This document shows, one piece after another, positions 4,434 through 20,184 of a stretch of 32,000 bases of DNA. Within the stretch, counting starts at the first letter, position 1. Every line of letters starts with the position of its first letter. The notes under the pieces are model-generated. The model searched no databases, was not told the DNA's origin, and was given only the letters and a program-made list of their open reading frames with translations. The DNA comes from Synechococcus sp. A15-28. GTDB taxonomy: Bacteria; Cyanobacteriota; Cyanobacteriia; PCC-6307; Cyanobiaceae. Both the position numbers and the translations under genes were made by a program. The stretch is from positions 570,001-602,000 of the forward strand of contig NZ_CP047931.1 of NCBI RefSeq assembly GCF_014280175.1, read 5' to 3'.

Positions 4434-5003
4434 ATGCGTATGTCCTTCATCTGCCTTGCCGAGGCCAGCCATCACTGCACGGTTGCGCTGCCCGGTGGCG
4501 ATCAGGCTGTGCTGCAGCGGTTTCTGCAGCGCCCGAAGCGCTCGATGGCCGCTCTGCTTACCCGCCAGCGGATGGAGAGTCAGGGCGATGGGCGTTTCCT
4601 CTATTCCTCCCGACCGTTTCAAATCCTGCGGTTTGAAATCACACCGGAGGTGCTGTTTTCCGCGCAGTGGTCGGATCCAGCTCAAGCACTTGAGATTGCC
4701 TTTGAGGACTGCCGGATTCATGGCCTCGGCGCCATGCAGAGCGCCATTCGGTTTGAGTGTGTGGCGTTGCTTGCTCCCCAAGGGGAGTGTGTTGAAGCCC
4801 AGGCGCGGGCGGCGATTTTGCTGTCGTCGGACAGTCCGTTGATTGCGCTGCCGTCCGGTCTGCGCCAACGCCTGGCTCAGCAGGCTTTGCAGCTGGTATT
4901 CGCGCGGCTCGAACGGCGCTGCCAAGAGGGTCTGAGACGGGCCTTGCTGGATTGGATCGTTAAGGATGCTTCCGCGCGTTCCAATGTCAAGCATGAGAGT
5001 TAA
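4434..5003 (+). CDS. DUF1997-family conserved cyanobacterial protein
   Basis: The ORF has 189 codons with ATG at 4434. The pattern VLQRFLQRPKR..AALL....GDGRF.....PFQILRFEITPEV.....LEI....C.I.GLG matches my recollection of the DUF1997 profile. Assigned by eye only. Confidence 0.55.
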   Translation: MRMSFICLAEASHHCTVALPGGDQAVLQRFLQRPKRSMAALLTRQRMESQGDGRFLYSSRPFQILRFEITPEVLFSAQWSDPAQALEIAFEDCRIHGLGAMQSAIRFECVALLAPQGECVEAQARAAILLSSDSPLIALPSGLRQRLAQQALQLVFARLERRCQEGLRRALLDWIVKDASARSNVKHES

Positions 5004-5026
5004 ACTCCCGGGATGCATCCGGAGAC

Positions 5027-5848
5027 ATGAGCAACACGCAGCCCGGGCTTGTGGGGAGGTTCCAGTCAACGATTGATCGTCTTTGGCTGCAAATCAGAAT
5101 TGTTCTGGCGCTTTCTGAAACTGAATTCGTTCTCAGGGCGGAAAAGGGATCCTTTGGAGTGTGGGGGGTCTTGTTTGAGCCCTTGGCGTTGATGATGACC
5201 CTGTTAGCGCTCAGGATTTTGATCCGTTTGAAGTCCACTGATCTGCTGAATCCTGTGGTCTGGCTTATTTGCGGGGTCGCGCTTCTTTATATGTTCAGAA
5301 AAATAGGAATCAAGGCCCTTACAGGGGTTTCAAAGCGCCAAAAATTCTTTTTTTATCGTCGCATCCGTCCCTTAGACACGTTGCTGGCTTCAGCCTTGAT
5401 TGAAGCAAGAATCCATGGTTCAGTTCTGGTACTTGTTTTCCTAAGTGTTTCATTCTGGAATTGGCAGATCAAGCTGGATAATCCTGCCCTTGTGCTTGTT
5501 GACTTCCTCTTGACAATTGCTCTCGGATTGGGAGTAGGGATCAGCGCTTTGGTGATCGGCCATCGCATACCAATCGTTAAAACCTTGACAAAATTTGGGA
5601 TTAACCGCCTCGTGCTCTGGACCTCTGGAATTTTCTATGCCACCTACACACTTCCAGGCCCAATTCGTCCTTTTGTGACGTGGAACCCCTTACTCCACTC
5701 CGTTGAATTGTTGCGACATGGAATTAATCTGGCCTATCCAATACCCGGTATCAGCTTGCAGTATCTGTTCGTGTGTAGTTCTCTGAGCTGCGGTTTTGGA
5801 CTACTGTTCTATTTCTTCAACGAGGCTCTCCTGCTCTCCGATGACTGA
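5027..5848 (+). CDS. kpsM: capsule/polysaccharide export ABC-2 permease, KpsM-like
   Basis: The protein is 273 aa and multi-TM. It aligns by eye along its length with E. coli KpsM (YRRIRPLDTLLASALIEARIH vs YRPVKPIDTIIARALLETLIY; TWNPLLHSVELLRH vs LWNPLVHVVELSRE). The start is ATG 5027. GC is lower than the flanks. Confidence 0.85.
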   Translation: MSNTQPGLVGRFQSTIDRLWLQIRIVLALSETEFVLRAEKGSFGVWGVLFEPLALMMTLLALRILIRLKSTDLLNPVVWLICGVALLYMFRKIGIKALTGVSKRQKFFFYRRIRPLDTLLASALIEARIHGSVLVLVFLSVSFWNWQIKLDNPALVLVDFLLTIALGLGVGISALVIGHRIPIVKTLTKFGINRLVLWTSGIFYATYTLPGPIRPFVTWNPLLHSVELLRHGINLAYPIPGISLQYLFVCSSLSCGFGLLFYFFNEALLLSDD

Positions 5849-7064
5849 ACAGCCTCGTGTCAGACAGACGACCGGACTGCTGCCGAAATTCGGAGAAGGT
5901 ACACGCTGGTTCGATAGCTTCGCTGGCGATGCTGCTTCTTCCGTCACGCCAAGGGTTCGTTCTGGGCTGAACGGGACATTCAGGGATCTGTTCAATTCGA
6001 GCACATTAGCTGCAGCATTCGTCGTCATTTCGGCGGTGTATTGCTTTGGGATCGGCCGTGATCGCTATCAAGCGACGTCGGAATTCGTGATCAAGCAGCC
6101 GCTACCCCCTGCGACTGCTTCCACCACAGTCCTCGGTTCGATGCAGAGCTCCAGCGTGCTCTCGTCTCTAGAGGATGGTCGCTATCTGCAGGTCTACCTG
6201 AAATCCAATGCTGTGAAGCAGGCGGTTTTCCCTGATCCCTCAGCTTTCAAGTCGATTTATGCCCCGCAGGCTCCAGATCAATGGAGTGGCTTGCCAGGTG
6301 ATGCCAATGAGCAGGAGCAGCTCTCGTTCTTCCGCCAGCAGCTCGATGTGATTCCCCAGGAGCTATCTGGGACCATCGTTCTATCCACGAGTGCTTTCAC
6401 GGCAGACGATGCCTATCGTTTGAACCGCGATCTCCTGAAACAGGCACAGCGCTTCGTCAATGAGGTCAATCAGTCGATCAGTGCCGATCAGCAGAGCTTT
6501 GCTGAGGAACAGGTTGCTTTCGCAAAGAACCGTTTGACCACGGCCACCAATGCGCTGGAAGCCTTTCAGGATCGTTATGGCCAATTGGATCCTCTGGGAG
6601 AACAGTCGGCCACCACAGGCTTCATCACTGGCTTGGAATCGCGGCTGGTTGATCTGAAGGTCGAGGAAGCCAGCCTTCGACGCCAGTTCCGTGATCCCAA
6701 TGCTCCAGAAGTTGCTTTTGTTGCCGACCAGGTGCGTGAGCTCGAGCGTCAGATTCAGGAGGAGCGCCAGAAGGCCGTTGGGGCCGGAGGACGTGATCTG
6801 AACAAACTTGCCACGCAAGCAAGTCGTCTCCAGGGAGATGTGAATTTCGCTAGGGAATCCTTGCGTTCAGCCATGCGCGCGGCTGACAACAGCCGTATGG
6901 AGAGCCAGCGTCAGTTGAAATTCATCGTGATGCTGAGCAAGCCGCAGATGCCCACAGGACCCGAAATCTCATGGCGTTGGAAGGCCTTCCTGTCGTGCCT
7001 TGGGGTTCTGATCGTGGTCTGGGGTGTTGGGGGTTTCATGCTGACAGCATTGAGGCGCGATTAA
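5841..7064 (+). CDS. kpsE: polysaccharide co-polymerase / capsule export inner-membrane protein, KpsE-like (PCP-3)
   Basis: ATG 5841 overlaps the kpsM stop by 8 nt (ATGACTGA); the ORF-track start at 5796 is TTG. An N-terminal TM (AAAFVVISAVYCFGI) is followed by RYQATSEFVIKQ and a long helical region, then a C-terminal TM (AFLSCLGVLIVVWGVGGFML). RFVNEVNQSISADQQSFAEEQVAFAKNRL...YGQLDP aligns with E. coli KpsE RFINEMSHRIARDQLAFAETEMEKARQRL...NNVLDP. Confidence 0.85.
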   Translation: MTEQPRVRQTTGLLPKFGEGTRWFDSFAGDAASSVTPRVRSGLNGTFRDLFNSSTLAAAFVVISAVYCFGIGRDRYQATSEFVIKQPLPPATASTTVLGSMQSSSVLSSLEDGRYLQVYLKSNAVKQAVFPDPSAFKSIYAPQAPDQWSGLPGDANEQEQLSFFRQQLDVIPQELSGTIVLSTSAFTADDAYRLNRDLLKQAQRFVNEVNQSISADQQSFAEEQVAFAKNRLTTATNALEAFQDRYGQLDPLGEQSATTGFITGLESRLVDLKVEEASLRRQFRDPNAPEVAFVADQVRELERQIQEERQKAVGAGGRDLNKLATQASRLQGDVNFARESLRSAMRAADNSRMESQRQLKFIVMLSKPQMPTGPEISWRWKAFLSCLGVLIVVWGVGGFMLTALRRD

Positions 7065-7231
7065 AATCAATTTTAGTTAATACTTTTATGCGGATTGATC
7101 TTTATTTTGATCATCGGGCCAGCGTATAAAGCGTTTTTAGGGATGAATGAAAAATATTAACTCCGAGTTTATTGATTATGTTTTCGTCGAGCATACTTTT
7201 TGTCTCTTCAGCTAAGTTGTATTTTTATTGT

Positions 7232-10171
7232 TCAATGATCTTCGCGCATTCGTTCTGTCTCCTCCAGATAATTTTCTATTTGTCCCGCCAACCGACGATT
7301 GCCGCGACGAATGGTTTCTTTCCAGTCTTTAATGTCTACACCATGAGGATTGTCTCGAAGCAAGCTAACCTTGATAAATGGGAAATCATGATTCTCAATG
7401 AGTGATTTCCATTCAGCATGTAGAATATTGCCGTTGGCATTTTTTGAGAAAAGGCTTTCAAGGGTCATCCCATTCTTCTTAAGGAGGATGGAGAGACCTA
7501 CCTCATAGTTTTTGACGATGTTGCGTTTTTCATCCCAGCACATTATTTGCTCCCAAAACTGCCAGAATGCTGGGCAAGCAATAGCACGACTTTTAAACAT
7601 TAGAAACGCAGATTGTAGATGCGGTTCATACATGAGGTTATCCGTTAAACCGATCACATCCGCTTGACTATTGGTAAGGCGATTCACAAGTCCAGTTAGG
7701 GGACGAATCGGACCCCAGAAACTGTCGTTGCTGAGCAATACAGATTGTCTTTGATTGATCAGATCGCGACAAAATCTTAGACCAGTCATCCAGCTCCCAA
7801 AGTCATACCCTTCATTACGTCGAATGATCAGACCATCACAAACATTCCTAAGAGCTGCTAAATCACGAGGGTGTTCCAACAATGATGGTGTCGCAGCAAC
7901 GACTTGAACATAAAAATGACGTCTATACGTTCTTAAGAGATCAAGAATGTCAGAGCGGATTGGTTTGTCGTCATTGGATCCATATTGTGCGAATATAAGC
8001 GGTATGCGTTTGTCATTCTTTCTTAACGGACGCCTCCAGGTCAACAGCACTTCTTCTCGTGCTGGCCTGAGAGGGGCCACTTGTTTCAGGATTGGTTCGT
8101 ATCTAGTCGAATGATGATGAAGGAGGGGGCTGGTTAATGGATCACCTTGTGCATAAATTGTTTTGTGCTTTAGGCGAAGTCGACCAGATTCTCGTTGATG
8201 TCTTGCCCAAGCAAATCCAACTTGATCTTTACCGCGACTAATTGACTCATAGTGAGTGATTGTTGCATGTGGCGTTACAACAATTCTCCCCCCTGCATCC
8301 CTGAGCCTGAGGCAAAGGTCGACATCATTGAAAACAACGGCGAGTTTTTCATCAAATCCACCCACAAAGTCAAACCACTCGGCTTTCACCATCAAGCAGG
8401 CTGCAGAGGCTGCGGAAAACTCCTCTTGTGTTCTGAGTGGCAAAAGGCTAGCAATCACCTCTTGCTCTTTAAGATGCTTACCAGGTTCGAGAACGCAACG
8501 ACGCTCTCCAGGAATAATGACAACTCCTTGATGTTGGATGCTTCCATCGGGATAATTAAGTCTCGAACCGACGGCTACAGTTTTGGGATGTGCAAAGGGA
8601 TCTAGAAGTACATCAAGAATACTTTCGGAGACGAACTCAATATCGTTGTTGAGAAAAAGTAGAAAATCTCCTTTGCACAACTGACGAGCTCTATTGTTTA
8701 GCCGCGAGTAATTGAATTCTTCATCGAGACGTGTGCATTGAATATTGTCTTCCTTGATAGCTTTTTTTATCCATTCTATTGTTGAATTGTCGGCACTCCC
8801 GTTGTCAATTAGAATGATCTCATAATTGCAGCTTTTCCCTGCATTTTGCTGAATTGATTTGACACATGTGCTTGTTAATTCCACTTGATCTCTAAATGGA
8901 ATCAATATGGAAACCAACGATGATTCATCTGTTGGGCGTGACAAGTCATGGCATCCTGCCTGCAAGGGGTTGGGCTTGAGTCCTCCCTCTATTCCAAAAT
9001 ATTGTTTGGCATGCTGACTCTTGATACGATCTATCTCATCTAATTGCTTATCACTAAATGGGCATCGTTCACGGGGCCAGCCTTGTTCAGGCATTGAAGG
9101 ATTCTTAGAACCTTGATGCTTTACAAGTGCCTGATGACAATGGGTAGTCTTGATCGGCTCGCGAGTGATCTGTAGCAGTACATCCAGACGCAATGCTTCA
9201 AGGCAGGTATAACTAGGAGCAAATGAACACTGCTTAAATAGAGAATAATCGAGCGTTAGAAGTCCTCCAATGCCTCCTCGAGTACACAGACGAATGGCTG
9301 ATACTGAGCTTCGGTATTGCCGATGTTCGTATCCAAGTCCATCATTCCAAAGTTGGCGAACAATAATGTCATCGCAGGTCATCACAGTGTTCGTTTTCGC
9401 TTGTTGGAGATGTCCCGCTAAGGCATGTAGGGCTCCATTGGCCAAGATATCGCTGGCATGACAAATGCTGATCCACTCTGCAGAGTAATCTCGTAGCAGA
9501 TTTGGCAAAGAATTCATATTTGCCAAAGAGCATGAAACCACATGCTCCCAACCACCTGTAACAGCTAAAGATTGTGCTCGATGTATTGTTCCATCAATCA
9601 CTAAAAGAAGATACTTTGATGTTAAAACGCCGGGATTTATTGTGGGTAGCTTTGTTGGATGATATCGATCAAGCCCTGTCGCAACAGACTCTTGCCGACG
9701 GAAATGGTCCCACCCCTCAGTTGCGAGATGTTCGAGTAAAGAGATTTTATTAGCGCGGCTAATTTGTCTCTGTGTCTTGTTCAGGCCTGAGTCATAAGCT
9801 CCAATGGGAATGGGCGGTAGATCTCCGTAAAGAGAAAGATGACCATTTAAAATTTGATTAAGTGTCCCACTCATCAGTAACTCATCAATTGATGAGAGGT
9901 GCCGATGTTGAAGAAGTAAGGGGAGTTTTTGAATTCCATCCTCTGAAGGGTTCCATGTTGCTGGCTCCAACAGTAGGGAAATAGGTAAATATCGCGGATT
10001 AAGAAGATGAAAGTCTAAGTAATCATGCAGTCTCGCAAGATCTGTTTTAATTAAATTAAGATCTATACCGATACGCTTGAAGTGTTTGAGCTGCTTTTGT
10101 AAAGAGCTAATAGAGGTTTTTCCATTTCTCCAATCCTGAAAGGATTTTGCCCACCTGTCGTTTGGATTCAT
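7232..10171 (-). CDS. 979-aa multi-domain glycosyltransferase: degenerate GT2-like domain + GT2 domain + RgpF (rhamnan synthesis protein F) domain
   Basis: The GT2 domain spans aa ~419-650 (nt ~8222-8917): VSILIPFRDQVELTSTCVKSI...YEIILIDNGS...FLLFLNNDIEF...AACLMVKAEWFDFVGGFDE. The RgpF-like domain spans aa ~722-945 (nt ~7337-8008): IPLIFAQY...LIIRRNEGYDFGSWMTGL...LLSNDSFWGP. The segment aa ~186-315 (nt ~9227-9616) parallels a GT2 fold but reads CHASD where the paralog has LDHDD. ATG 10171 overlaps the upstream stop (ATGA). The gene is AT-rich. Confidence 0.8.
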   Translation of the reverse strand: MNPNDRWAKSFQDWRNGKTSISSLQKQLKHFKRIGIDLNLIKTDLARLHDYLDFHLLNPRYLPISLLLEPATWNPSEDGIQKLPLLLQHRHLSSIDELLMSGTLNQILNGHLSLYGDLPPIPIGAYDSGLNKTQRQISRANKISLLEHLATEGWDHFRRQESVATGLDRYHPTKLPTINPGVLTSKYLLLVIDGTIHRAQSLAVTGGWEHVVSCSLANMNSLPNLLRDYSAEWISICHASDILANGALHALAGHLQQAKTNTVMTCDDIIVRQLWNDGLGYEHRQYRSSVSAIRLCTRGGIGGLLTLDYSLFKQCSFAPSYTCLEALRLDVLLQITREPIKTTHCHQALVKHQGSKNPSMPEQGWPRERCPFSDKQLDEIDRIKSQHAKQYFGIEGGLKPNPLQAGCHDLSRPTDESSLVSILIPFRDQVELTSTCVKSIQQNAGKSCNYEIILIDNGSADNSTIEWIKKAIKEDNIQCTRLDEEFNYSRLNNRARQLCKGDFLLFLNNDIEFVSESILDVLLDPFAHPKTVAVGSRLNYPDGSIQHQGVVIIPGERRCVLEPGKHLKEQEVIASLLPLRTQEEFSAASAACLMVKAEWFDFVGGFDEKLAVVFNDVDLCLRLRDAGGRIVVTPHATITHYESISRGKDQVGFAWARHQRESGRLRLKHKTIYAQGDPLTSPLLHHHSTRYEPILKQVAPLRPAREEVLLTWRRPLRKNDKRIPLIFAQYGSNDDKPIRSDILDLLRTYRRHFYVQVVAATPSLLEHPRDLAALRNVCDGLIIRRNEGYDFGSWMTGLRFCRDLINQRQSVLLSNDSFWGPIRPLTGLVNRLTNSQADVIGLTDNLMYEPHLQSAFLMFKSRAIACPAFWQFWEQIMCWDEKRNIVKNYEVGLSILLKKNGMTLESLFSKNANGNILHAEWKSLIENHDFPFIKVSLLRDNPHGVDIKDWKETIRRGNRRLAGQIENYLEETERMREDH

Positions 10172-11079
10172 TGGGCTTTCCTGCTGACTAGCCTCAGAAG
10201 TTTTTGCAGGACCATTATGTAAAATTGTCTTTTCTTATCAGAGTTTTTGGTCTCCAATTGTCTACTTGACTGGCGCACATCAATTCCTGATTCTTGACTA
10301 GTTCTTTCATCATTGGCCCATCCAAGATTGTGCTCTTCTATATCTAGCTTGTTAGATAGCGATTGATTCGTCGAGGACTTTCTTAGTTCTTTGATTTCAT
10401 CCAAAAGTAGTGCATTTTTAGTTTTTTGTTTCCTTAATAAATTTTTCAGCCGTTCATTATCCTTCATAAGGCTTTCATAGTCATTTTGGATCTGCGCTAA
10501 TTGATTTACACTATTTCTAACTTCTTCAAAACTTGCTTCTCGGTCAAGGTTGACCTCCCACCAGTCCATCAGCACGAGATCAGTCAATGAGCTTTGAATC
10601 AACCTTTGTATATAGTTGCTGTCTGCTTCCAGACCAAATAAACAGGATTTAAGTTCTAGATTGAGGTAAATATCAATAATTCTTGGTTCTTTTTTCGCAA
10701 TAGCTAGGGTTAGCAAGCTAGAAAGGGGCTTCAAGCTTGGGAAGTTATTACTTTTATCTAGCTGTGGATCCTCACCATTGCATAATCTTCTGATCGATGT
10801 AATGTCGAGCAGATCAAGACGCCAACTTGATGAAATATTTTTATATTTTAACGATAAAAGCGATAACTCTTCGTAATGCACGTGAATTTCATCGCATTTT
10901 GTTGCCGTACTTTCTTCCAGTCTTTTTTGTTCGAGCACTTGATTGGGTGCCGAATAAATTAATAATACATTTTGAGGTTCAATATCAGGATTGGCAGATG
11001 AAAGAGGTTTAAGTCCTGCTTTAGCTAGTTTGTCTTGTAGTGATGCACTAATATTTGATATCGAATACCAGTACTGCAT
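10168..11079 (-). CDS. hypothetical protein with coiled-coil segment (no family recognised)
   Basis: The ORF is open to TTG 11148. The first ATG is at 11079 (MQYWYSISN), giving 303 aa. A heptad-like stretch reads EEVRNSVNQLAQIQNDYESLMKDNERLKNLLRKQKTKNALLLDEIKELRK. Its stop overlaps the start of the 979-aa glycosyltransferase by 4 nt. A sampled line is about 32% GC. Confidence 0.55.
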   Translation of the reverse strand: MQYWYSISNISASLQDKLAKAGLKPLSSANPDIEPQNVLLIYSAPNQVLEQKRLEESTATKCDEIHVHYEELSLLSLKYKNISSSWRLDLLDITSIRRLCNGEDPQLDKSNNFPSLKPLSSLLTLAIAKKEPRIIDIYLNLELKSCLFGLEADSNYIQRLIQSSLTDLVLMDWWEVNLDREASFEEVRNSVNQLAQIQNDYESLMKDNERLKNLLRKQKTKNALLLDEIKELRKSSTNQSLSNKLDIEEHNLGWANDERTSQESGIDVRQSSRQLETKNSDKKRQFYIMVLQKLLRLVSRKAQ

Positions 11080-11105
11080 TTGATTCCTGATTCTTACGCG
11101 CAGTC

Positions 11106-11111
11106 TATAAT
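11106..11111 (+). promoter_or_regulatory. possible -10 element (TATAAT) in the divergent control region between 11079(-) and 11134(+)
   Basis: A perfect TATAAT lies at 11106-11111, 23 nt upstream of ATG 11134. There is no convincing -35: TTGATT at 11080-11085 is 20 nt away. In AT-rich DNA such hexamers arise by chance. Confidence 0.25.
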
Positions 11112-11133
11112 GCAGAACGCTCCTGAAGCTCAC

Positions 11134-12402
11134 ATGGCGTTCAGTCAATGCATGAGTGTATTAGTTGGCTGTCCCGCATCACCAACGCAGCTTCCTGATG
11201 GCCCTTGTTTGATTGTTGATGCTGAGTCAATTGATCAGAAAGATTTAATTGCTCAAAAGTTCTATTGTGCTCACTACCCCGAACCACCTGTCGACAATGT
11301 AGTACTGCTCAACCAGACAGTTATTTCAGAATTCGATCATCAGATTATTGATTGGAATATTTTCTCTGACAGTCGCTTCAATGGTCCTTCAACATTATCA
11401 GAGTTATCTGAACAATATCCAAACCTAAGATTAATTGAAAGCAGGAAGATTGAAGGTATCACCCTTTCTACTGTATTAACACATCAAAAAATTATTTCTG
11501 ATCCACTTTCAACTTTTGAGCTTATTTTGTATGAAGGTGATCCGTTAGTTGCTCTTCAAAGTTTGAAGGAGTGGTTGGCCCGTTGCACTCGTATTTCTTT
11601 GCGTGGTTTAGTCACTAGCTCTAAATCTCGTGAGGCCGCTGAAGCATTTTTGGGGGCATCTGGCTTTTGCAAATCGTCGGTTGATTCTTGTGTATGGACT
11701 CCTGAGCTTGAGATATCGTCACTTCATCTGTCCATAATTAGATGTGGTTTGTTGGCTTTATTTAATGCCGATATCTATCGAGAGCTATTTCCTCAGACGA
11801 AGGAAATGACAGATGTTGAACTGATTGACCACTGGTTATCACAGCCTAGTTTTAGAGAAATTGCCAAGGAGATGGAAAAGAGTATCCATAATCCATTAGA
11901 CAGAGATGGACTTTTGGCACTATTTAATGCCGATATCTATCGAGAGCTATTTCCTCAGACGAAGGAAATGACAGATGCAGAACTTATTGACCACTGGTTA
12001 TCACAGCCTAATTTTAGTGATGTATCTAAATTGATAAATGATGCTATTCAACGTAATCCAAATCAGCTCTCTGAATTGACAGACCAAGATCCCTCACTTC
12101 AGTTGTTGCAGCATATTTTCCCTTTTGAGTTATATCGATCTCAGAGGCCAGATCTCCTACAAATATCCAACAGAGAGTTGATCAATCACTATTGGCAAAA
12201 TGGGCAATATGAGGGGATTGATCTCTCAGAGTCAAATGTCAAAAATATTCTCGATAGAGATCAATCGTTGCAAGTCGACCGACTAACTTCTCGTGTTCAT
12301 GAACTAGAGCATCTTTTATCGTGCGCGAACGCACAGATTAGTGCTATGCAAAAGTTGATTATTGGTTCACGAGATTCTGGAGCCATCAATGAACAAGACT
12401 GA
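11134..12402 (+). CDS. hypothetical protein with internal 54-codon tandem duplication and C-terminal coiled-coil-like segment (no family recognised)
   Basis: The ORF is open from TTG 11080, with in-frame ATGs at 11110, 11134 and 11152. It contains LLALFNADIYRELFPQTKEMTD(V/A)ELIDHWLSQP twice plus a diverged third copy, FPFELYRSQRPDLLQISNRELINHYWQNGQYEG. The C-terminus reads LQVDRLTSRVHELEHLLSCANAQISAMQKLI. The exact start is uncertain. Confidence 0.55.
   Translation: MAFSQCMSVLVGCPASPTQLPDGPCLIVDAESIDQKDLIAQKFYCAHYPEPPVDNVVLLNQTVISEFDHQIIDWNIFSDSRFNGPSTLSELSEQYPNLRLIESRKIEGITLSTVLTHQKIISDPLSTFELILYEGDPLVALQSLKEWLARCTRISLRGLVTSSKSREAAEAFLGASGFCKSSVDSCVWTPELEISSLHLSIIRCGLLALFNADIYRELFPQTKEMTDVELIDHWLSQPSFREIAKEMEKSIHNPLDRDGLLALFNADIYRELFPQTKEMTDAELIDHWLSQPNFSDVSKLINDAIQRNPNQLSELTDQDPSLQLLQHIFPFELYRSQRPDLLQISNRELINHYWQNGQYEGIDLSESNVKNILDRDQSLQVDRLTSRVHELEHLLSCANAQISAMQKLIIGSRDSGAINEQD
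11752..12017 (+). repeat. in-frame direct tandem duplication, two 104-bp copies with 162-bp period
   Basis: Copy 1 is 11752-11855 and copy 2 is 11914-12017. My manual alignment finds 6 mismatches and a 57-bp perfect run (11759-11815 = 11921-11977). The 162-nt period equals 54 codons. Confidence 0.9.
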
Positions 12403-13690
12403 TCAGATACTTGCCTGTCGCGTCTTGGCGGATGATTATTTGTCCGGAAGATGGCAGAAAATTATCAAGCCAGTCTGTTCTTTGAACGATACAGCAACAT
12501 GTGATAATTCTTCCACGCTTAGTGACTTCGTGCGACTTCTTGCCAGTCTAGTTCCTGCAGAAATCCTGAAGGAGGATTGGAAGCCTGCTTTATTGTCACA
12601 TCGCACCTCTTTTACTGAGGCACGTCTTCGCTACTGCGCAACTCATTTACTTTGTGCTTGTAATAATCTTGCGTGCAGAAACGATCAACAATATCGCTAT
12701 AAACTTCACCTCTTTTGCATTAGCTTGGGTAAATTACTAAAATCTGATGATGATTTTATACTCATTGCTGATGTGTTTTCATTCCCCGACTCTCTCGTAT
12801 CACTGAGTCAAAGTATTCGTATATTTTATTCGGCTTACAGTCGTCGTTTGCGTGAGTCATTCCCTCAACAGATGACGGTTGTTTTAGGGATGCATCGTAG
12901 TGGAACCTCTGCTTTAACTGGATTACTTGGTAACTTAGGCATTGCAGGACCTACGGATGCATTAGGTGCCACGGAAAATAATCTGTTGGGCTATTGGGAA
13001 TCTACTTCTTTAGTCACTTCTTCTGATCGTTTTTTGGCTTCTCAAAATAGCCATTGGTCTACTCTTTATCGTTGGTCTCTTGGGTGGTGGAAATCAGCGG
13101 CAGCTCTAGACTGGATCGATTCTTATTGGCATGATTTGCAAAATGCCTATAATACGAAGGAACACTTCGTCTTGAAAGATCCACGCCTTTGTATTTTGAT
13201 CGAGGGTATGACCCCATGCTTAGTTGATTCTCTACTGCAGTTGGATTTTTTGTTGATATTACGCTCTCCTGTTGAGGTTGTTATTTCTTTGTGTAAGGCG
13301 GAAGAAATTTCTCCATACGACGCTCTTAACTTGTGGATCGGATCAGTCTTACGCGCTGAATGTACCTCACGTCCTTATTCACGCAATATTCTCACGTACT
13401 ACCAACTGATGAATAGGCCTCAATCTATTTTGGATTCTTTTGGACTGAACTGGAATCAAAGCTTTATGGAATCGACGCTTGATCAGGCAAAATCCTTTTT
13501 AAGGCCATCATTGTATCGAACCAAGATTGATAACGTAAGGGAACCATTTGTGGCAACAAATCCTGAGTTGACTAGTCTTTTGGAGCTGGCTGAAGAGATC
13601 TTTGATTGTTTTCAACATGCTACCCCAGACATTGCTAGTATCTCAGAGAGATTAAATTATCAGTGGGTTGAAATCTTGGCAGGTCGTTAG
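12389..13690 (+). CDS. sulfotransferase-family protein with ~165-aa N-terminal extension of unknown function
   Basis: A PAPS 5'-phosphosulfate-binding-type loop, VVLGMHRSGTSALTGLL, is encoded from 12887 (GMHRSGTS). Downstream, FVLKDPRLCILIEG...LLILRSPVEVVISL resembles the second PAPS-binding region of bacterial sulfotransferases. ATG 12389 overlaps the upstream stop by 14 nt; the ORF-track start at 12362 is TTG. Confidence 0.65.
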   Translation: MNKTDQILACRVLADDYLSGRWQKIIKPVCSLNDTATCDNSSTLSDFVRLLASLVPAEILKEDWKPALLSHRTSFTEARLRYCATHLLCACNNLACRNDQQYRYKLHLFCISLGKLLKSDDDFILIADVFSFPDSLVSLSQSIRIFYSAYSRRLRESFPQQMTVVLGMHRSGTSALTGLLGNLGIAGPTDALGATENNLLGYWESTSLVTSSDRFLASQNSHWSTLYRWSLGWWKSAAALDWIDSYWHDLQNAYNTKEHFVLKDPRLCILIEGMTPCLVDSLLQLDFLLILRSPVEVVISLCKAEEISPYDALNLWIGSVLRAECTSRPYSRNILTYYQLMNRPQSILDSFGLNWNQSFMESTLDQAKSFLRPSLYRTKIDNVREPFVATNPELTSLLELAEEIFDCFQHATPDIASISERLNYQWVEILAGR

Positions 13691-13717
13691 CAAATGTTTC
13701 CGTAAATGATTTTTAGC

Positions 13718-16132
13718 TTAATATCGCTGATAGTAATCTTTCATCTTCCTGAAACTGGATCTAATTTCAATTCCTTTCTTGATGCTTTCTGGGGAAGTGC
13801 TGACGCTAAAATTTTCACGGATCTTTGTTAGGTTTGGATTGTAAAACAAATCACTTGGTAGTTCTTTGATGTTTTGAATGTCGTATTGATTCAGCATGAA
13901 GTTTATTTCTTTCCTGAACCTTTCTTGCTTTTCGGGAGAGTCCTCGGCTCCTCGCGATATTGATTCGTGGTGAAACAGCTCAGCGTATGGCGTGAAAATA
14001 TTCCGATATCCTCTTGCGTGAACTCTCATGCAGAAGTCGACATCATTAAATGCGATTGTGAGGTCTTGTTCATTTAGTCCGCCGACGTTATTGAAAATTT
14101 CTCTGCGAATTGCGAGGCATGCTGCAGTTACTGCTGTCATCTGTTGTACATATTGAAGTCTGTCGACATAACCAGGACTATCTTCCGGAAAGTATTTATG
14201 GGCATGACCGGCGACTTGGCCAATTCCAATAATTACACCTCCATGCTGAATAGTCCCATTCGAATAGTATAACTTTGCGCCGACACAACCAACGTCTGGC
14301 CTTGAAGTGTGGGAAACAAGTTCTTGGAGCCATTCGCCAGTGATAACCTCAACATCGTTATTGACCAAAGCAATGATATCTGCCCTTGATTTGCTGACGG
14401 CATAGTTGTTGATGGCTGAAAAGTTGAATTTTTTGTTATACTTGATTATATTTATTTTTTCACCATGTTTTCTTTTCAGTTTTTTGAATAGATTCTTTGT
14501 CTCGACCTCTGCGCTCTGGTTGTCTACAATTGTGATTGTATAGTTCGTATATGTCGTCTTGGTGATGATTGAATCAACTGCCAGATTTAATACCTCTGCT
14601 TGATCTCGAGTGGGGATGATGAGTTCCACAGATGGTGGCTTTTCTGGTATGTGCCACTCGCAGGTGAATCGGTTCCTTGCCTTGATGCGGGCTGTTGCCT
14701 TAATGCCGCCACGTCGATGCTGCTCGTCCAGGTAGTGCTGAACTGCTCTGTGTCCGCTTTCAGTTGTGTAATCCTTGCTGTTTGGGTTGCTGGCGGTTGA
14801 TCCAGAATGTGCTCGCCAGTGGTACAAGACTCTGGGGATGTGAATAATTTGGTCCGGGGAAGATTCCAGGACAGTCCTGAGCGCAAGATCGTGATCTTGG
14901 CTTCCCTCGAAGCCAACCCGGAAGCCACCAATTTGTTTGAGGATCTCTCTTCTGTAAACACCCAAGTGTGAAATAAAGTTATAAGACAAGAGTAGATCTA
15001 TGTTGAAGGCTGGCTTGAAGTGTGGGCATGAACGTATTCCATCATCGTTGACTTTGTCTTCATCGCTATAGATTAAATTTGCTTGCGGCTTTTTTTGCAA
15101 CTCACGTGCCACCCAGTAAAGAGCATTGTCTGCAAGGATATCGTCGTGATCGAGTAATGCTACGTATTCTCCTGTCGCCAGACTAAGTGCGTCATTGCTG
15201 GCTTCACATATGTGGCCATTCTTTTCGCGAAAGATAAGTTTAATTCTAGGGTCTATCGCTTGATAGCTCTTGAGGGTTGTCTTGACGCTCACTGTGCTGG
15301 AGCAGTCATCGCAGATGCAGAGTTCCCAGTTGGGATAGCTTTGACGGCATACGCTTTCGATGCATTTGCGAAGGTGGTTGCTGTTGGTGTTGTAGGTAGG
15401 AATAATAATGCTGATAAGTGGGGCGTCTTTATTTAGGTCAAGCCATTCCCTAATTTGCTCTTCCGTGTGGTCGAGCTCTGGTTCGATTTCTTTTAAGTAG
15501 CGATTGTATTGGTCATCTGCTCCTTGCTGGGTTTGATTGTTGATAGGTTTTTTGGGCCAAGACTGATGCCTGATCTGGGATGATCGATAGATCTGTTCTG
15601 TTCGCCATGCAATTTCTTTTTTTGTCGAGTAGGCCTCCCCCTCGATGACATTGTCGTTTGCCTTGGGCTTCCTTGATGTCCATTGTCTTAAAATATCTAC
15701 AAACGTATCTTCGGTTGTAGGCAATAGTGAAATAGTCGCATTGATTGCTCCGGGAGTATTGACTGGTTTGATCTTGACTCTGCTCCTTTGCAGGACGACG
15801 ATTGGAAGTACAAGGCACGGTTCTGATCTTGTGCCTTGGATCGGCACTGTGAATGTTCTTGCCAGCAATTTGTTGGGACCAACCGGCTCTATGGAAACGG
15901 AGCAAAGTGTTGGCTGCTCTTCGGAATTAATTGATAGTCGAAGTAAGTAGTACCCTTTCGCGATGCCTTTGCGTGTTTCGAAGTAACAATTTGCATGTTC
16001 GGCGTAGTATTTCCCGTCGCCAAGTAGTCGTATGTTGTTTCTAACCCAATCCTGCCGATGGCATCTGTCTTTTCTGGTTTCTTGTGTTTGTTCCACTACG
16101 TTTTCTTTTCGGCATAGTGTGTGATGTACCAC
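13718..16132 (-). CDS. 804-aa glycosyltransferase with two GT2 domains and an unassigned ~235-aa N-terminal domain
   Basis: GT2-A spans aa ~238-445 (nt ~14798-15421): LISIIIPTYNTNSNHLRKCIESVCRQSYPNWELCICDDCS...YVALLDHDDILA...LIYSDEDK. GT2-B spans aa ~501-730 (nt ~13943-14632): VELIIPTRDQAEVL...ITIVDNQS...IIALVNNDVEV...AACLAIRREIFNNVGGLNE. The start is ambiguous: GTG 16132 gives a 37-nt overlap with rfbB, and GTG 16096 gives a TAGTG 1-nt overlap. Confidence 0.8.
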   Translation of the reverse strand: MVHHTLCRKENVVEQTQETRKDRCHRQDWVRNNIRLLGDGKYYAEHANCYFETRKGIAKGYYLLRLSINSEEQPTLCSVSIEPVGPNKLLARTFTVPIQGTRSEPCLVLPIVVLQRSRVKIKPVNTPGAINATISLLPTTEDTFVDILRQWTSRKPKANDNVIEGEAYSTKKEIAWRTEQIYRSSQIRHQSWPKKPINNQTQQGADDQYNRYLKEIEPELDHTEEQIREWLDLNKDAPLISIIIPTYNTNSNHLRKCIESVCRQSYPNWELCICDDCSSTVSVKTTLKSYQAIDPRIKLIFREKNGHICEASNDALSLATGEYVALLDHDDILADNALYWVARELQKKPQANLIYSDEDKVNDDGIRSCPHFKPAFNIDLLLSYNFISHLGVYRREILKQIGGFRVGFEGSQDHDLALRTVLESSPDQIIHIPRVLYHWRAHSGSTASNPNSKDYTTESGHRAVQHYLDEQHRRGGIKATARIKARNRFTCEWHIPEKPPSVELIIPTRDQAEVLNLAVDSIITKTTYTNYTITIVDNQSAEVETKNLFKKLKRKHGEKINIIKYNKKFNFSAINNYAVSKSRADIIALVNNDVEVITGEWLQELVSHTSRPDVGCVGAKLYYSNGTIQHGGVIIGIGQVAGHAHKYFPEDSPGYVDRLQYVQQMTAVTAACLAIRREIFNNVGGLNEQDLTIAFNDVDFCMRVHARGYRNIFTPYAELFHHESISRGAEDSPEKQERFRKEINFMLNQYDIQNIKELPSDLFYNPNLTKIRENFSVSTSPESIKKGIEIRSSFRKMKDYYQRY

Positions 16133-17172
16133 TGCACTGTTTTCGCGATGGCTTCATTGAAATCATGCCGTGGTTTCCACCCCAGCTCGGTTTCAATTCT
16201 TGCTGGATCAATGGCGTATCGCCTGTCATGTCCAGGCCGATCAGTCACCAGTTGAATTAATTGCTTATGCGGATTGCGCGTCGGAAGTAGCTGATCCAAC
16301 TGGCTACAGATGCATTCCACGACCTCGCGATTGGTTCGTTCTCCATAGCCGCCGACGCAGTAACTGCGGCCTGATGCTCCCTTGCAAGCGGCCAGGAGCA
16401 GGGCATCGACGTGGTCTTCCACGTACAACCAGTCTCTGACGTTCAATCCATCGCCATACAAGGGGATTGGCTCTCCTGCAGCAGCCTTCAACGTCACGAC
16501 GGGAATCAACTTTTCGGGGAATTGCCAAGGTCCGTAGTTGTTGGAGCAATTCGTCAGCACCACTGGCAATCCGTACGTGTGGTGCCAGGCGCTCACCAGA
16601 TGGTCACTGGCCGCCTTGCTGCTCGAATATGGACTTCGCGGGTCGTAGGGGGTGGTTTCGCAGAAACGACCTTCCTCGCCCAGGGAGCCAAAGACTTCAT
16701 CGGTGCTGATGTGATGCAGTCGGAAGTTCTCTTGGCGCTCTCCGCTCAAGCCCTCGACATGCTCCCGTACCGCTTGCAGCAGGTTGTACGTCCCCGTCAC
16801 GTTGCTCTCGATGAACACACCAGGGCCCGCAATCGAGCGGTCCACATGACTTTCCGCCGCAAGGTGCATCACCAGATCGGGATCCGCTGCCTGCACCGCG
16901 TCTCGGACCGCCTTGGCGTCAGCAAGGTCCACCTGTTGCAGCACATGTCGTTGGGCAGCTCCATCACCAAGCTCAGTCAGCACCTCCTCGATCGAGGTGA
17001 GATCGCTGGCGTAGCCCATCTTGTCGAGATTGAACACCATGGCGTCGCTCTCGCGCAGCAGGCGCCGCACCACGGCTCCGCCAATAAATCCAGCCCCTCC
17101 TGTCACGAGCACCCGCCGGCGGGATCCCAGCAGCTCAGCAGCCGTCGGCATGGTGTTGGTCATCGCAATCAC
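16096..17172 (-). CDS. rfbB: dTDP-glucose 4,6-dehydratase
   Basis: Motifs VLVTGGAGFIGG, HISTDEVFGS and YSSSKAASDHLV are typical of RmlB. GTG 17172 overlaps the rfbD stop (GTGA). Alternative ATG starts lie at 17163 and 17151. Confidence 0.92.
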   Translation of the reverse strand: MIAMTNTMPTAAELLGSRRRVLVTGGAGFIGGAVVRRLLRESDAMVFNLDKMGYASDLTSIEEVLTELGDGAAQRHVLQQVDLADAKAVRDAVQAADPDLVMHLAAESHVDRSIAGPGVFIESNVTGTYNLLQAVREHVEGLSGERQENFRLHHISTDEVFGSLGEEGRFCETTPYDPRSPYSSSKAASDHLVSAWHHTYGLPVVLTNCSNNYGPWQFPEKLIPVVTLKAAAGEPIPLYGDGLNVRDWLYVEDHVDALLLAACKGASGRSYCVGGYGERTNREVVECICSQLDQLLPTRNPHKQLIQLVTDRPGHDRRYAIDPARIETELGWKPRHDFNEAIAKTVQWYITHYAEKKT

Positions 17173-18077
17173 GAGCTGGTGGGGATGGCCCGCAGCACAT
17201 CTCTGAGAGCTGCCCGCCAGGACTGCGCCTCAAGATTCAGCGCCGCGCGGCTTCCCTGGCAATCCAGCAGGGAATAAGCGGGACGGGTGGCTGGGGTTGG
17301 GTAGTCGGCGGTGCTGATCGGATTCACCGTGGCGGCTTTCTCCAGCAGACCAAGGTCCATTGCCAACTCACCCACTGCTACGGAGACGTCATACCAGCTG
17401 GCGGCGCCGCCATCACACCAATGCATGACAGGGGGGAGTACTACTTCTTTACAGCTGGTGGTGATCACCGTCCAGCAAGCCGTCGCCAGGTTCAACGTGC
17501 TGCTCGGGCAGCCCACCTGATCGGCCACCACCCCTAACTGCTCTCTCTCCCGATGCAGCCGCAACATGGTGAGGGCAAAGTTTTTGCCCACTGGACCCAT
17601 CACCCAGCTGGTGCGCAGCACCACACCTTGGTCACTTGCCCCAAGCAGCTCTTCCACCGCCTCCTCTCCGCTGGCCTTGCTGGCGCCATAGACCCCTAGA
17701 GGATCGCGCTTCTGATCGACCCGATAAGGGGACCCCTGCTGACCGTTGAAGACAAAGTCGGTGCTCAGCTGCAGCATCCGGCCGCCGTACTCCTCGATGG
17801 CGTCTGCAAAGGCGCGGGGTGCGGCTCCATTCACGGCATGGGCCAGCTCTGGCTCCGCTTCCGCTTTGTCCACCGCGGTGTACGCACCGGCATTCAGAAC
17901 CCAGTCGGGGCGGTGCTCCTCCACCGCCTTGCTGCAGGCCATGGCATCGGCCAGATCGAGGGCCAACAATCCATCCCCTCCACTGCGGCTGCTGGGCAGC
18001 AGCTCAATCCCATCCGGGGTCGCTTCGATCAACGCCTGGCCCAGCTGGCCGGCAGCACCGGTGAGCAACACCTTCAT
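17169..18077 (-). CDS. rfbD: dTDP-4-dehydrorhamnose reductase
   Basis: [16 protein letters not shown] and YGASKASGEEAV match RmlD, and the length is typical. ATG 18077 shares 1 nt with the rfbC stop (TGATG). Confidence 0.9.
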   Translation of the reverse strand: MKVLLTGAAGQLGQALIEATPDGIELLPSSRSGGDGLLALDLADAMACSKAVEEHRPDWVLNAGAYTAVDKAEAEPELAHAVNGAAPRAFADAIEEYGGRMLQLSTDFVFNGQQGSPYRVDQKRDPLGVYGASKASGEEAVEELLGASDQGVVLRTSWVMGPVGKNFALTMLRLHREREQLGVVADQVGCPSSTLNLATACWTVITTSCKEVVLPPVMHWCDGGAASWYDVSVAVGELAMDLGLLEKAATVNPISTADYPTPATRPAYSLLDCQGSRAALNLEAQSWRAALRDVLRAIPTSS

Positions 18078-18664
18078 CAGAATATATCTCCAGTTGCCGT
18101 GGCTTGATCCAGGCTGGCGGCGTCTCCATCCTTGCCCGACAGGTTCACCTCAGTTCCTGCCAGCTGATCCAAGGGCCAGGCGATGCCGATGGTGGCGTCG
18201 TTCCAGCGGATGGCCCGCTCGCAATCCTTGTTCCAGAAGCCGCGCGCCTTGTACTGCACTTCAGCCACAGCGCTGAGGGTCAGAAAGCCGTGGGCAAAGC
18301 CCTCCGGCACCCAGAGCTGCTGCTTGTTCTCTGCACTCAAATGGGCACCCACCCACTGCCCGAATGTGGTGGAACCCCGGCGGATGTCCACCGCCACATC
18401 AAAGATCTCTCCGATGCTGGCCCGCACCAACTTGGCCTGCGGTTCCGGCGAGAGTTGGTAATGCAGACCGCGCAGCACCCCTTGTGCGGAGCGGGAGTGG
18501 TTGTCCTGGGAGAACACCACCGCTTCATCCACGGCCTCATCAAATTTGCGTTGGTTCCAGCTTTCAAAAAACCAGCCCCGCTCATCGCCAAAGGCCTTGG
18601 GGCTGATCAGCAGGGGGCCTTCAATGGTGGCCCCTTGAGGGCTCTGCAGTTGCTCAACCTGCAT
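18077..18664 (-). CDS. rfbC: dTDP-4-dehydrorhamnose 3,5-epimerase
   Basis: From ATG 18664 the protein reads [37 protein letters not shown]...LRGLHYQ, the canonical RmlC pattern. The upstream part of the ORF (to 18793) overlaps rfbA and looks non-coding. Confidence 0.9.
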
Positions 18665-19595
18665 GGGTCGGCACCTCCAGACTGCTCTGCAACGCGGCGT
18701 GATCGCTGATGCTTTCCTCCAGCAGCTGCAGCAAATAGGTGCCGTAGCCGCTCTTCTTGAGGGGCTGTGCCAGTCGTTCCAATTGCGAAGCATTGATCCA
18801 ACCCTGGCGCCAGGCCACCTCCTCCGGGCAACCCACCTTCAGGCCCTGACGGTGTTCCAGCGTGCGGATATAGCCACCGGCATCGTTAAGGGAGTCGCAG
18901 GTGCCGGTGTCCAGCCAGGCCATCCCTCGACCCATCAATTCCACCCTGAGCAGGCCGTCATCCAGGTACATCTGGTTGAGATCGGTGATCTCCAGCTCCC
19001 CACGGGCTGAGGGTTTTACCTGGCGGGCCCGTTCCACGACGGAAGAGTCATAGAAGTAGAGGCCGGTCACGGCGTAGCGACTCTTGGGCTGCTGGGGCTT
19101 CTCCTCAATGCTCAGCACTCTCCCCTCCGCATCGAATTCAGCCACGCCATAGCGCTCCGGATCGCTGACGGGATAGGCAAACACCGTTGCGCCTTCCTCC
19201 CGGCCATCGCTGCTCACCAGCTGTGGCACCAGATCGTGACCGTGGAACAGGTTGTCCCCCAACACCAGGGCAGCCGATGCCCCATCCAGGAATTCAGCGC
19301 CGATCAGGAAGGCCTGCGCCAACCCATCCGGGCTGGGCTGAATGGCGTATTCGATCGTCATTCCCCAGCGGCTGCCGTCGCCCAGCAGGCGCTGGAAGGC
19401 CTCCTGATCGTGGGGGGTGGTGATGATCAACACCTCACGGATTCCCGCCAGCATCAACGTGCTCAGCGGGTAGTAGATCATCGGCTTGTCGTACACCGGC
19501 AGCAGCTGTTTGCTCACCGCCTGGGTGATCGGATGCAGCCGCGTGCCACTGCCTCCGGCCAGGATGATTCCCTTACGGCGCGAAGGATGAGGCAC
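18654..19595 (-). CDS. rfbA: glucose-1-phosphate thymidylyltransferase
   Basis: [54 protein letters not shown] is the canonical RmlA N-terminus. The start is GTG at 19595. Confidence 0.93.
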
Positions 19596-19644: not shown

Positions 19645-20166
19645 TCAATCACGCCAGTCGAGCCAGGGGAGCCCAGGGGCAATGGCCGGGGTTGTGGAGC
19701 GGTACGTCGCGTAGTCCGGATGGAGCTGGAGCAAGGACCGTTCCTCCCGGCGGGCTTTCCCCCCCAGCACGACCACCAGCCCCAGCAGCAGCAGTAGATG
19801 CAGCAGGCTGCCGAAGGCCAGCACCACCCCGAGGGAACACAGCAGCACGGCCTGGTACATCGGGTGCCGGCAGCGTTGATAAGGCCCCTGGCAGATCAGG
19901 CGGTTTCCCTGCTTGGCCGCCGGCAACGGAGACAGGCTGCTGCCGAGGGCGGCAAAGGCTTGGGCTGCTACGACCAAGCCGCTCAACAGCAGCAGCACGC
20001 CGACGATGAAAAGGGGACGGGGCCAGATCTCCAACCCCCAGGCGGCAGCTGTTGGCCAGGGCGGCAGCAGGTGTGCCGTGATCATCACCAGCTGGGCCAG
20101 CAGCCACCATTCGCCGCGGCGGTTATCGAGCCAGCCCCCCCAGCTCAGTCCCCAACCTGAAAACAT
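19645..20166 (-). CDS. isoprenylcysteine carboxyl methyltransferase (ICMT)/phospholipid methyltransferase-family membrane protein
   Basis: It is a multi-TM protein with the C-terminal pattern GPYQRCRHPMYQAVLLCSLG...ARREERSLLQLHPDYATY typical of the ICMT/PEMT family. The start is ATG 20166, with GTG at 20169. Confidence 0.7.
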   Translation of the reverse strand: MFSGWGLSWGGWLDNRRGEWWLLAQLVMITAHLLPPWPTAAAWGLEIWPRPLFIVGVLLLLSGLVVAAQAFAALGSSLSPLPAAKQGNRLICQGPYQRCRHPMYQAVLLCSLGVVLAFGSLLHLLLLLGLVVVLGGKARREERSLLQLHPDYATYRSTTPAIAPGLPWLDWRD

Positions 20167-20184
20167 CACCTGACTACTCCTTCC

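Follow-up and report, generated by a model that had tools for sequence, protein, structure and literature searches.

A putative three-protein device for ending and sizing a surface polysaccharide in marine Synechococcus

What stops a growing surface polysaccharide, and at what length, is the question raised by a glycan island of Synechococcus sp. A15-28, analysed here within a stretch of 32,000 nucleotides (contig NZ_CP047931.1, positions 570,001 to 602,000 of the forward strand; hereafter the window, with coordinates counted from its first letter). At the centre of the island, between two multi-module glycosyltransferase genes, lie three genes, A, B and C, which most likely encode a sulfate-adding enzyme (C) and two scaffold proteins (A and B) modifying a rhamnose-rich surface polysaccharide, and whose products, as judged from sequence comparisons, probably stop the chain and set its size. 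The set resembles a chain-length device already known from bacteria, in what appears to be a new version made of three proteins. An earlier, sequence-only reading of the same DNA had proposed a terminator mounted on coiled-coil rulers that caps the polymer with sulfate and so licenses its export. The three open reading frames (ORFs) and their overlaps are as it had described them: the stop codon of A overlaps the ATG of a gene for a 979-residue GT2 and RgpF glycosyltransferase by 4 nucleotides (ATGA, 10168-10171), and B and C overlap by 14 nucleotides (12389-12402).

10168-11079, minus strand: gene A, 303 residues; conserved N-terminal domain, heptad helix, variable low-complexity stretch and basic amphipathic tail
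11134-12402, plus strand: gene B, 422 residues; N-terminal domain, 54-residue repeats and C-terminal helix; the orthologue in strain WH8102 is SYNW0643
12389-13690, plus strand: gene C, 433 residues; divergent Sulfotransfer_3-type enzyme
12389-12853, plus strand: N-terminal domain of C, residues 1-155; cyanobacterial members only; candidate docking domain
12866-13588, plus strand: catalytic domain of C, residues ~160-400
12884-12913, plus strand: LGMHRSGTSA of C, residues 166-175; invariant in 34 sequences
13262-13288, plus strand: R292-S-P-V-E-V-V-I-S300 of C; R292, P294 and S300 invariant in 34 sequences

The sulfotransferase and its relatives

Relatives and motifs together show the predicted enzyme class of C, namely a 3'-phosphoadenosine 5'-phosphosulfate (PAPS)-type sulfotransferase of the Sulfotransfer_3 kind. 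The label already given to C in the sequence-only reading is thus retained, with the qualification that searches of Pfam and NCBIfam with C gave no match even at an expectation value (E) of 0.1, so that the assignment rests on its relatives, of which 1864 were found, and on conserved motifs. PF13469 (Sulfotransfer_3) was matched at E ≤0.01 by 21 of the 34 aligned members of the C family, and three members exceeded the threshold of 27 bits, namely P0032, at 55% identity to C (29.5), P0042 (30.0) and P0094 (35.6), their matches covering positions 3-216 of the 216 of the profile. The LGMHRSGTSA segment corresponds to the 5'-phosphosulfate-binding loop (x-R/K-S-G-T-T/S) of PAPS sulfotransferases, and R292-x7-S300 to the R-x7-S 3'-phosphate-binding motif. 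No solved structure in the PDB was matched by the C-family profile at E ≤1. Along the C profile, cyanobacterial homologues align from position ≤14 and non-cyanobacterial ones from position ≥126, and the first 155 residues may represent a docking domain.

A scan of reference genomes with C yielded 80 loci, 77 of them outside cyanobacteria, mostly in Proteobacteria, with Bacteroidota, Planctomycetota, Verrucomicrobiota and others also represented. Of these 77 non-cyanobacterial proteins, 73 carry the C-type catalytic domain at their N-terminus, and in 41 it is directly followed by at least 100 residues of heptad-rich sequence (41 to 49 of the 77 when the count is of proteins in which the enzyme bears the coil itself), a feature found in 51 of 858 background ORFs (6%), each of at least 300 residues. 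The heptad-rich segments gave sub-threshold matches to the coiled-coil arms of SMC and Rad50, providing independent support for the coil calls. At least seven of the proteins (L017, L031, L039, L042, L063, L076 and L086) continue into glycosyltransferase modules on the same polypeptide, and their GT2 modules resemble those of an 804-residue enzyme encoded next to C in the window. The L086 protein illustrates the layout, with Sulfotransfer_3 at residues 39-236 followed by a coil (~301-671), two GT2 modules and a GT4/GT1 module. Furthermore, at least five proteobacterial loci with the fused form (L015, L027, L028, L039 and L074) also encode a Wzt ATPase in which the carbohydrate-binding domain Wzt_C scores above threshold. 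Capped glycans of controlled length have two published hallmarks, a coiled coil with the enzyme at its far end and an ATPase that carries a binding module (PMC11231755). Since both hallmarks are present among the relatives of C, its sulfotransferase subfamily is best read, at the level of sequence, as a class of putative chain terminators.

The candidate scaffold proteins A and B

The hidden Markov models of A and B match cyanobacterial loci only, including every locus with a long-form C. These triad loci are the window, L001-L006, L009-L011, L091 and L092, with L007 and L008 in diverged form, and no A-like or B-like protein was found in the 77 non-cyanobacterial loci. A and B partner C in every cyanobacterial locus examined. 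A B-like gene lies directly 5' of C in all triad loci, at a spacing that goes from the 14-nucleotide overlap to an 18-nucleotide gap, and A overlaps the GT2 and RgpF gene by 1-4 nucleotides in the window, L001, L003, L004 and L006. The A/B synteny and the coupling with C and the glycosyltransferase persist across loci whose C proteins share as little as about 31% identity.

10540-11079, minus strand: N-terminal domain of A, residues 1-180, unannotated; cyanobacterial triad loci only
10348-10539, minus strand: heptad-like helix of A, residues 181-244; AlphaFold predicted local distance difference test score (pLDDT) up to 90; evaluated by a shuffle test
10171-10224, minus strand: C-terminal basic amphipathic tail of A, residues 286-303, FYIMVLQKLLRLVSRKAQ; candidate in-plane membrane anchor
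11080-11133, no strand: divergent intergenic gap between A and B (11080-11109 if B begins at the ATG at 11110)
11134-11733, plus strand: N-terminal domain of B, residues 1-200, unannotated; W74, D79, R81, G84, N97, D136 and W188 invariant
11740-12063, plus strand: two tandem 54-residue repeat units of B (162 nucleotides each); 1 to 4 copies in other strains
12097-12228, plus strand: third, degenerate repeat of B, residues ~322-365, IFPFELYRSQRPDL..ELINHYWQNGQYEGIDLS; of a type common in large multi-repeat proteins
12229-12375, plus strand: C-terminal helix of B, residues 366-414; core HELEHLLSCANAQ invariant among orthologues

The start codon of A can be placed with confidence, M1 and W4 showing no variation among 23 homologues. 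The gap that separates A from B measures 30-54 bp, since B may begin at 11134 or at the ATG at 11110, the latter (430 residues, with 8 more, MQNAPEAH..., at the N-terminus) being the start annotated in most database orthologues; a promoter scan of the gap gave nothing above chance. In WH8102 the orthologues of A and C lie on either side of SYNW0643, and a literature search found no paper on SYNW0642-0644. Neither A nor B has a Pfam, NCBIfam or PDB match, and profiles of their N-terminal domains gave nothing significant against PDB sequences. The two proteins had been called orphans, which holds in so far as neither falls in a curated family; they do, however, have relatives, forming 96 clusters for A and 140 for B at 90% identity.

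In A, the N-terminal domain contains an invariant block, Y138-L-x-L-E-L...F-G-L...D-S-x-Y. The strong heptad segment ascribed to this protein is present as the helix at residues 181-244, and its strength is moderate, the heptad cover of 66 of 96 residues (obtained heuristically) being reached by 20 of 1000 shuffles. The helix is the sole confident part of the AlphaFold2 model built from a 23-sequence alignment (mean pLDDT 51). In the C-terminal tail, the hydrophobic moment reaches the maximum of the protein (0.52; mean 0.24, standard deviation 0.12) with a net charge of +4; the tail is conserved in orthologues and may act as an in-plane membrane anchor. Some A homologues, such as P0332, P0326 and P0328, vary in length by a second route as well, through extra tandem units of ~14 residues (KENKDLKSKIDLLT) that come after the heptad helix.

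As had been noticed, B contains repeats, which a direct-repeat search resolves into 119-nucleotide copies at 11740-11858 and 11902-12020 (90% identity, spacing 162 nucleotides or 54 codons); Tandem Repeats Finder did not detect them. The degenerate repeat is of the type F-x-x-x-Y-R...P-D-L...E-L-I-x-H-Y...G-x-x-E-G, which reaches 14 copies in very large proteins (P0358, P0380, P0392 and P0435), some of the proteins of this type having GT1/GT2 domains and one a serralysin C-terminal domain; no Pfam family was matched by it in the scans made. The B N-terminal domain had appeared FkbM-like (VLVGCP..., LIVDAEP..., ILxQGDPLxxL), and its identification as a methyltransferase of this type finds no support, no recurrent Pfam family being found among nine diverse members at E ≤5. 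An exhaustive search with the full-length B alignment retrieved 174 B-related representatives among 1.84 billion proteins. The N-terminal domain also heads larger proteins that run via coils to GT2/GT1 domains (P0366, from a metagenome-assembled genome of Cyanobacteriota), to WbsX/RgpF domains (P0429) or to CmcI-like rhamnosyl O-methyltransferase domains (P0379 and P0420), and distant B homologues have long coils at the position of the C-terminal helix.

Both families are built of a conserved N-terminal domain (~200 residues) and a helical tail of variable length, from 34 to ~590 residues in A-like and from 121 to 366 residues in B-like proteins, with the extended coil of homologues reaching up to ~600 residues. 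In clade III, B proteins measure 376, 430, 484 and 530 residues, corresponding to 1 to 4 copies of the 54-residue repeat, and among the strains (P0121, P0122, P0129 and P0213) the repeat number of B varies as the tail of A stays constant.

L090 (the P0420 locus) contains an A-like protein (E = 5e-38), a GT2 and RgpF enzyme like that of the window and a B-like protein fused C-terminally to a methyltransferase, with no C-type sulfotransferase. O-methylation is an established cap chemistry. The replacement of the sulfotransferase by an O-methyltransferase in this locus suggests that A and B may be a scaffold pair carrying an exchangeable end-modifying enzyme.

Other departures from the common arrangement were observed. 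In L091 (9045-13464) the B-like/C pair is tandemly duplicated, the second, identical C following a 271-residue B fragment without the N-terminal domain. The near-identical metagenomic contigs L007 (8265-10001) and L008 (8297-9877) encode B-like proteins of 578 and 526 residues, whose long coil contains an internal duplication of ~90 residues; the choice of ORF start may explain part of the difference in length. In L004 (8213-9959) the B gene appears split into ORFs of 385 and 266 residues and the translation contains a stretch of unknown residues; the cause is probably an assembly gap in the repeat region and not a real pseudogene. L092 also encodes a 555-residue FkbM-family (Methyltransf_21) protein (11961-13628) and a shorter B-like paralogue of 369 residues (7678-8787).

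The island and its counterparts in known systems

The genes that surround A, B and C are those of a glycan pathway.

5027-5848, plus strand: KpsM-like ATP-binding cassette (ABC)-2 permease; KpsM model, E 1.6e-28
5796-7064, plus strand: KpsE-family export protein; KpsE family, E 4.8e-51
7232-10171, minus strand: 979-residue glycosyltransferase with an unannotated N-terminal part of ~400 residues, a GT2 and a partial RgpF domain; translationally coupled to A
13718-16132, minus strand: 804-residue glycosyltransferase with two GT2 modules; convergent with C
16096-19595, minus strand: rfbB, rfbD, rfbC and rfbA (dTDP-rhamnose genes)

The order in the island is permease, KpsE-family protein, GT2 and RgpF enzyme (minus), A (minus), B and C (plus), and double-GT2 enzyme (minus), so that the two multi-module glycosyltransferases and an ABC-2 exporter share the locus. 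The permease scores 100 bits against a model cut-off of 300, and the KpsE-family protein 174 bits against 437.5. The junction between C and the 804-residue glycosyltransferase gene gave nothing above chance in a scan for terminators and promoters.

The island (window ~5000-16100) has a guanine plus cytosine content of 0.44, compared with 0.64 in the flanks, and is bounded by fumC/DUF1997 on one side and by rfbBDCA on the other; the flanking genes PipX, SepF, DUF1823 and EngA are cyanobacterial, and B matches an A15-28 protein at 100% identity. The low value recurs in L001, L003, L004 and L006, but the contrast is less marked or inverted in L009, L010 and L007; this pattern suggests either an old, compositionally distinct island or horizontal acquisition. 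No family match was obtained for the first ~400 residues of the 979-residue enzyme, in which residues 21-53 form a short heptad segment, nor for the first ~230 of the 804-residue enzyme, and these parts could be docking sites for A or B. Outside the island, other envelope-related genes encode a 697-residue cellulose-synthase-like GT2 (21905-23998) and a GT4 enzyme (30094-31263), and a PEMT/ICMT-family membrane methyltransferase (19645-20169) adjoins rfbA.

A close parallel in layout is offered by WbdD and WbdA of Escherichia coli O9a and Klebsiella pneumoniae O3, which likewise belong to an ABC-transporter-dependent pathway with a non-glycosyl capping enzyme kept apart from the polymerase, the latter being a multi-module glycosyltransferase encoded adjacently, as in the window. 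Protein A resembles WbdD in its predicted layout of a globular N-terminal part, a putative coiled coil and a candidate membrane-associating amphipathic helix at the C-terminus. However, WbdD has no sequence similarity to the window proteins, is a kinase/methyltransferase instead of a sulfotransferase, and carries enzyme and coil on one polypeptide, whereas separate polypeptides, with two scaffolds and not one, are found here, along with a KpsM/KpsE-type exporter, no Wzt with a binding module and a much shorter coil. WbbB of K. pneumoniae O12 and ORF6 of O7 combine terminator, coiled coil and polymerase in a single protein, the same order being seen in the non-cyanobacterial relatives of C, such as that of L086, and similar fusions are headed elsewhere by the B N-terminal domain too. 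In the window, by contrast, three small proteins and two separate giant glycosyltransferases share these parts among them, and the terminator chemistry of WbbB and ORF6 is 3-deoxy-D-manno-oct-2-ulosonic acid (Kdo) or methyl-phosphate, not sulfate. A fully split polymerase/terminator complex with a coiled-coil protein has a precedent in K. pneumoniae O4 (PMC11231755), where the terminator keeps a coiled coil, whereas C has none and the predicted coils are on its two partners. Thus, the polymerase-terminator-ruler principle and split versions of it are already known, and the form that appears undescribed is that of a coil-less enzyme with two unannotated coil-bearing scaffolds, one of which is repeat-variable.

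Tailoring sulfotransferases, such as the Xss enzymes of Synechocystis synechan, are likewise PAPS-type and encoded in a polysaccharide locus, yet they act on internal residues and have no coiled-coil partners, and synechan is made by a Wzx/Wzy-type pathway. Sinorhizobium LpsS is another tailoring sulfotransferase of a surface glycan. As for sulfate as a cap, no demonstration was found in the accessible literature, which did not include the census of such chemistries that Mann, Kimber and Whitfield published in 2019; that census reportedly predicted ‘new chemistries’ of terminators. In the O-antigen cluster of Aeromonas salmonicida, an uncharacterised ORF of 216 residues with a sulfotransferase domain lies between wzt and a wbbB homologue, and no sulfate has been reported in the O-antigen (PMC4483657); it may be another, low-abundance case of terminal sulfate.

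Termination, decoration or neither

By taking into account the arrangement of the genes and domains, the following path can be proposed. C would dock onto B and/or A through its private N-terminal domain, with B, whose gene is translationally coupled to that of C, holding the enzyme, and A, co-translated with the GT2 and RgpF enzyme and provided with a basic amphipathic end, tying the assembly to polymerase and membrane alike. The sulfotransferase would thereby be kept at a set distance from the origin of the growing chain, and, when the chain has reached a sufficient length, would sulfate its non-reducing end, so that elongation stops and the length is set; the length of the spacer would determine that of the chain. 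That the three proteins act as a split modification/termination module in the making of a rhamnose-containing surface polysaccharide by an ABC-transporter-type pathway is given about an even chance on the comparative evidence. The complete scheme, in which marine picocyanobacteria size a surface rhamnan by a three-protein heteromeric ruler with a sulfate cap, with two distance-setting scaffolds, one of which steps by 54 residues (1 to 4 repeats), and with exchangeable sulfotransferase and O-methyltransferase cap enzymes, is put forward more tentatively.

Several observations weigh against termination by such a ruler. No heptad segment is present in C itself, so that any ruler must act in trans, via presumed contacts. 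The coils of this strain are short (about 60 and 45 residues in A and B), and the coiled-coil-like end assigned to B, present as the helix at residues 366-414 and invariant in orthologues, is not significant when taken alone, as 164 of 1000 shuffles reach its heptad cover. The AlphaFold models of A and B are unreliable, with mean pLDDT values of 51 and, for B (20 sequences), 40, and coiled coils were called with a heptad heuristic of our own instead of a calibrated predictor. The covariation of A and B tail lengths expected of a paired coiled coil is absent across the triad loci (in L091, A is very long and B short), which speaks against a simple pairing of A and B in one coiled coil. With its exporter of the KpsM/KpsE type, the locus also lacks one of the marks of capped systems, the cap-binding ATPase: the window contains no ABC ATPase gene, not even between or beside kpsM and kpsE, and no kpsT, kpsD, kpsC or kpsS. 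As none occurs anywhere in the island, the exporter ATPase of the marine strains must be encoded elsewhere in the genome. The sole cyanobacterial cluster that retains it is the freshwater Synechococcus locus L009, in which a KpsT-like gene sits between kpsM and kpsE (22-2371), and its product of 229 residues consists of ABC_tran alone, without a cap-binding module. Because no such ATPase or binding module is present, the idea that sulfate licenses export finds no support. The terminator on a coiled-coil ruler fares better, in that the locus belongs to a glycan pathway and the terminator layout recurs among the relatives of C, and less well with respect to the coil-less C and the short coils; overall, the idea has comparative support, short of proof.

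A serious rival is that C is a tailoring sulfotransferase decorating internal residues during synthesis, with A and B only tethering it and with no termination or length control. It has a cyanobacterial precedent in synechan, a sulfated extracellular polysaccharide made with ordinary tailoring sulfotransferases (PMC8205485), and the terminal modification of K. pneumoniae O1 does not control length (PMC11231755). The KpsM/KpsE-type exporter without a cap-binding ATPase and the short coils of this strain also fit decoration. This reading, possible but less probable than termination, finds it hard to explain why enzyme, long coil and polymerase recur in one layout and why Wzt_C ATPases accompany them, and the variable tails and the O-methyltransferase swap of L090 point to a terminal role. 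It is improbable, instead, that C is not a glycan sulfotransferase at all, being a pseudoenzyme or using another donor or another acceptor, for instance a protein, a small molecule or the lipid anchor. The failure of C to match any Pfam or NCBIfam model and of its family profile to match a solved structure would be in keeping with such a function, as would an acceptor that is not readable from the sequence; against it stand the two PAPS-binding motifs, invariant across 34 diverse members, the close relatives exceeding the Pfam threshold and the fusion of the domain to glycan polymerase modules in other phyla. Finally, that A and B are structural coiled-coil proteins or regulators present by chance in a variable island, as the lack of a curated family for either, the source name ‘predicted nuclease with TOPRIM domain’ borne by one B-domain cluster and the possibility of acquired cargo in a low-GC island might suggest, is very hard to credit given the synteny and coupling that persist at about 31% identity of C, the fusions of the B N-terminal domain to GT2/GT1, WbsX/RgpF or O-methyltransferase domains and the confinement of A-like proteins to such glycan loci.

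The setting of chain length is poorly understood in KpsMT-type and in cyanobacterial polysaccharide pathways. If termination by A, B and C is true, the polymerase-terminator-ruler principle would gain a sulfate cap chemistry, a split architecture, a new phylum and a new exporter type, the product would be the first sulfate-terminated bacterial glycan, and the N-terminal domains of A, B and C, three unannotated families, would acquire a working role. The proteobacterial fusions of sulfotransferase, coil and polymerase beside Wzt_C ATPases, among them those of Nitrosospira and Mesorhizobium loci, offer a more tractable setting for sulfate capping, and the strains with 1, 2, 3 or 4 B repeats would be a natural experiment. 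Among phototrophs, marine Synechococcus is abundant worldwide, and its surface glycans affect how phages adsorb, how the cells are grazed and how they aggregate. Under the complete ruler scheme, glycan length would be a rapidly evolvable trait in these organisms, possibly under pressure from phages or grazers.

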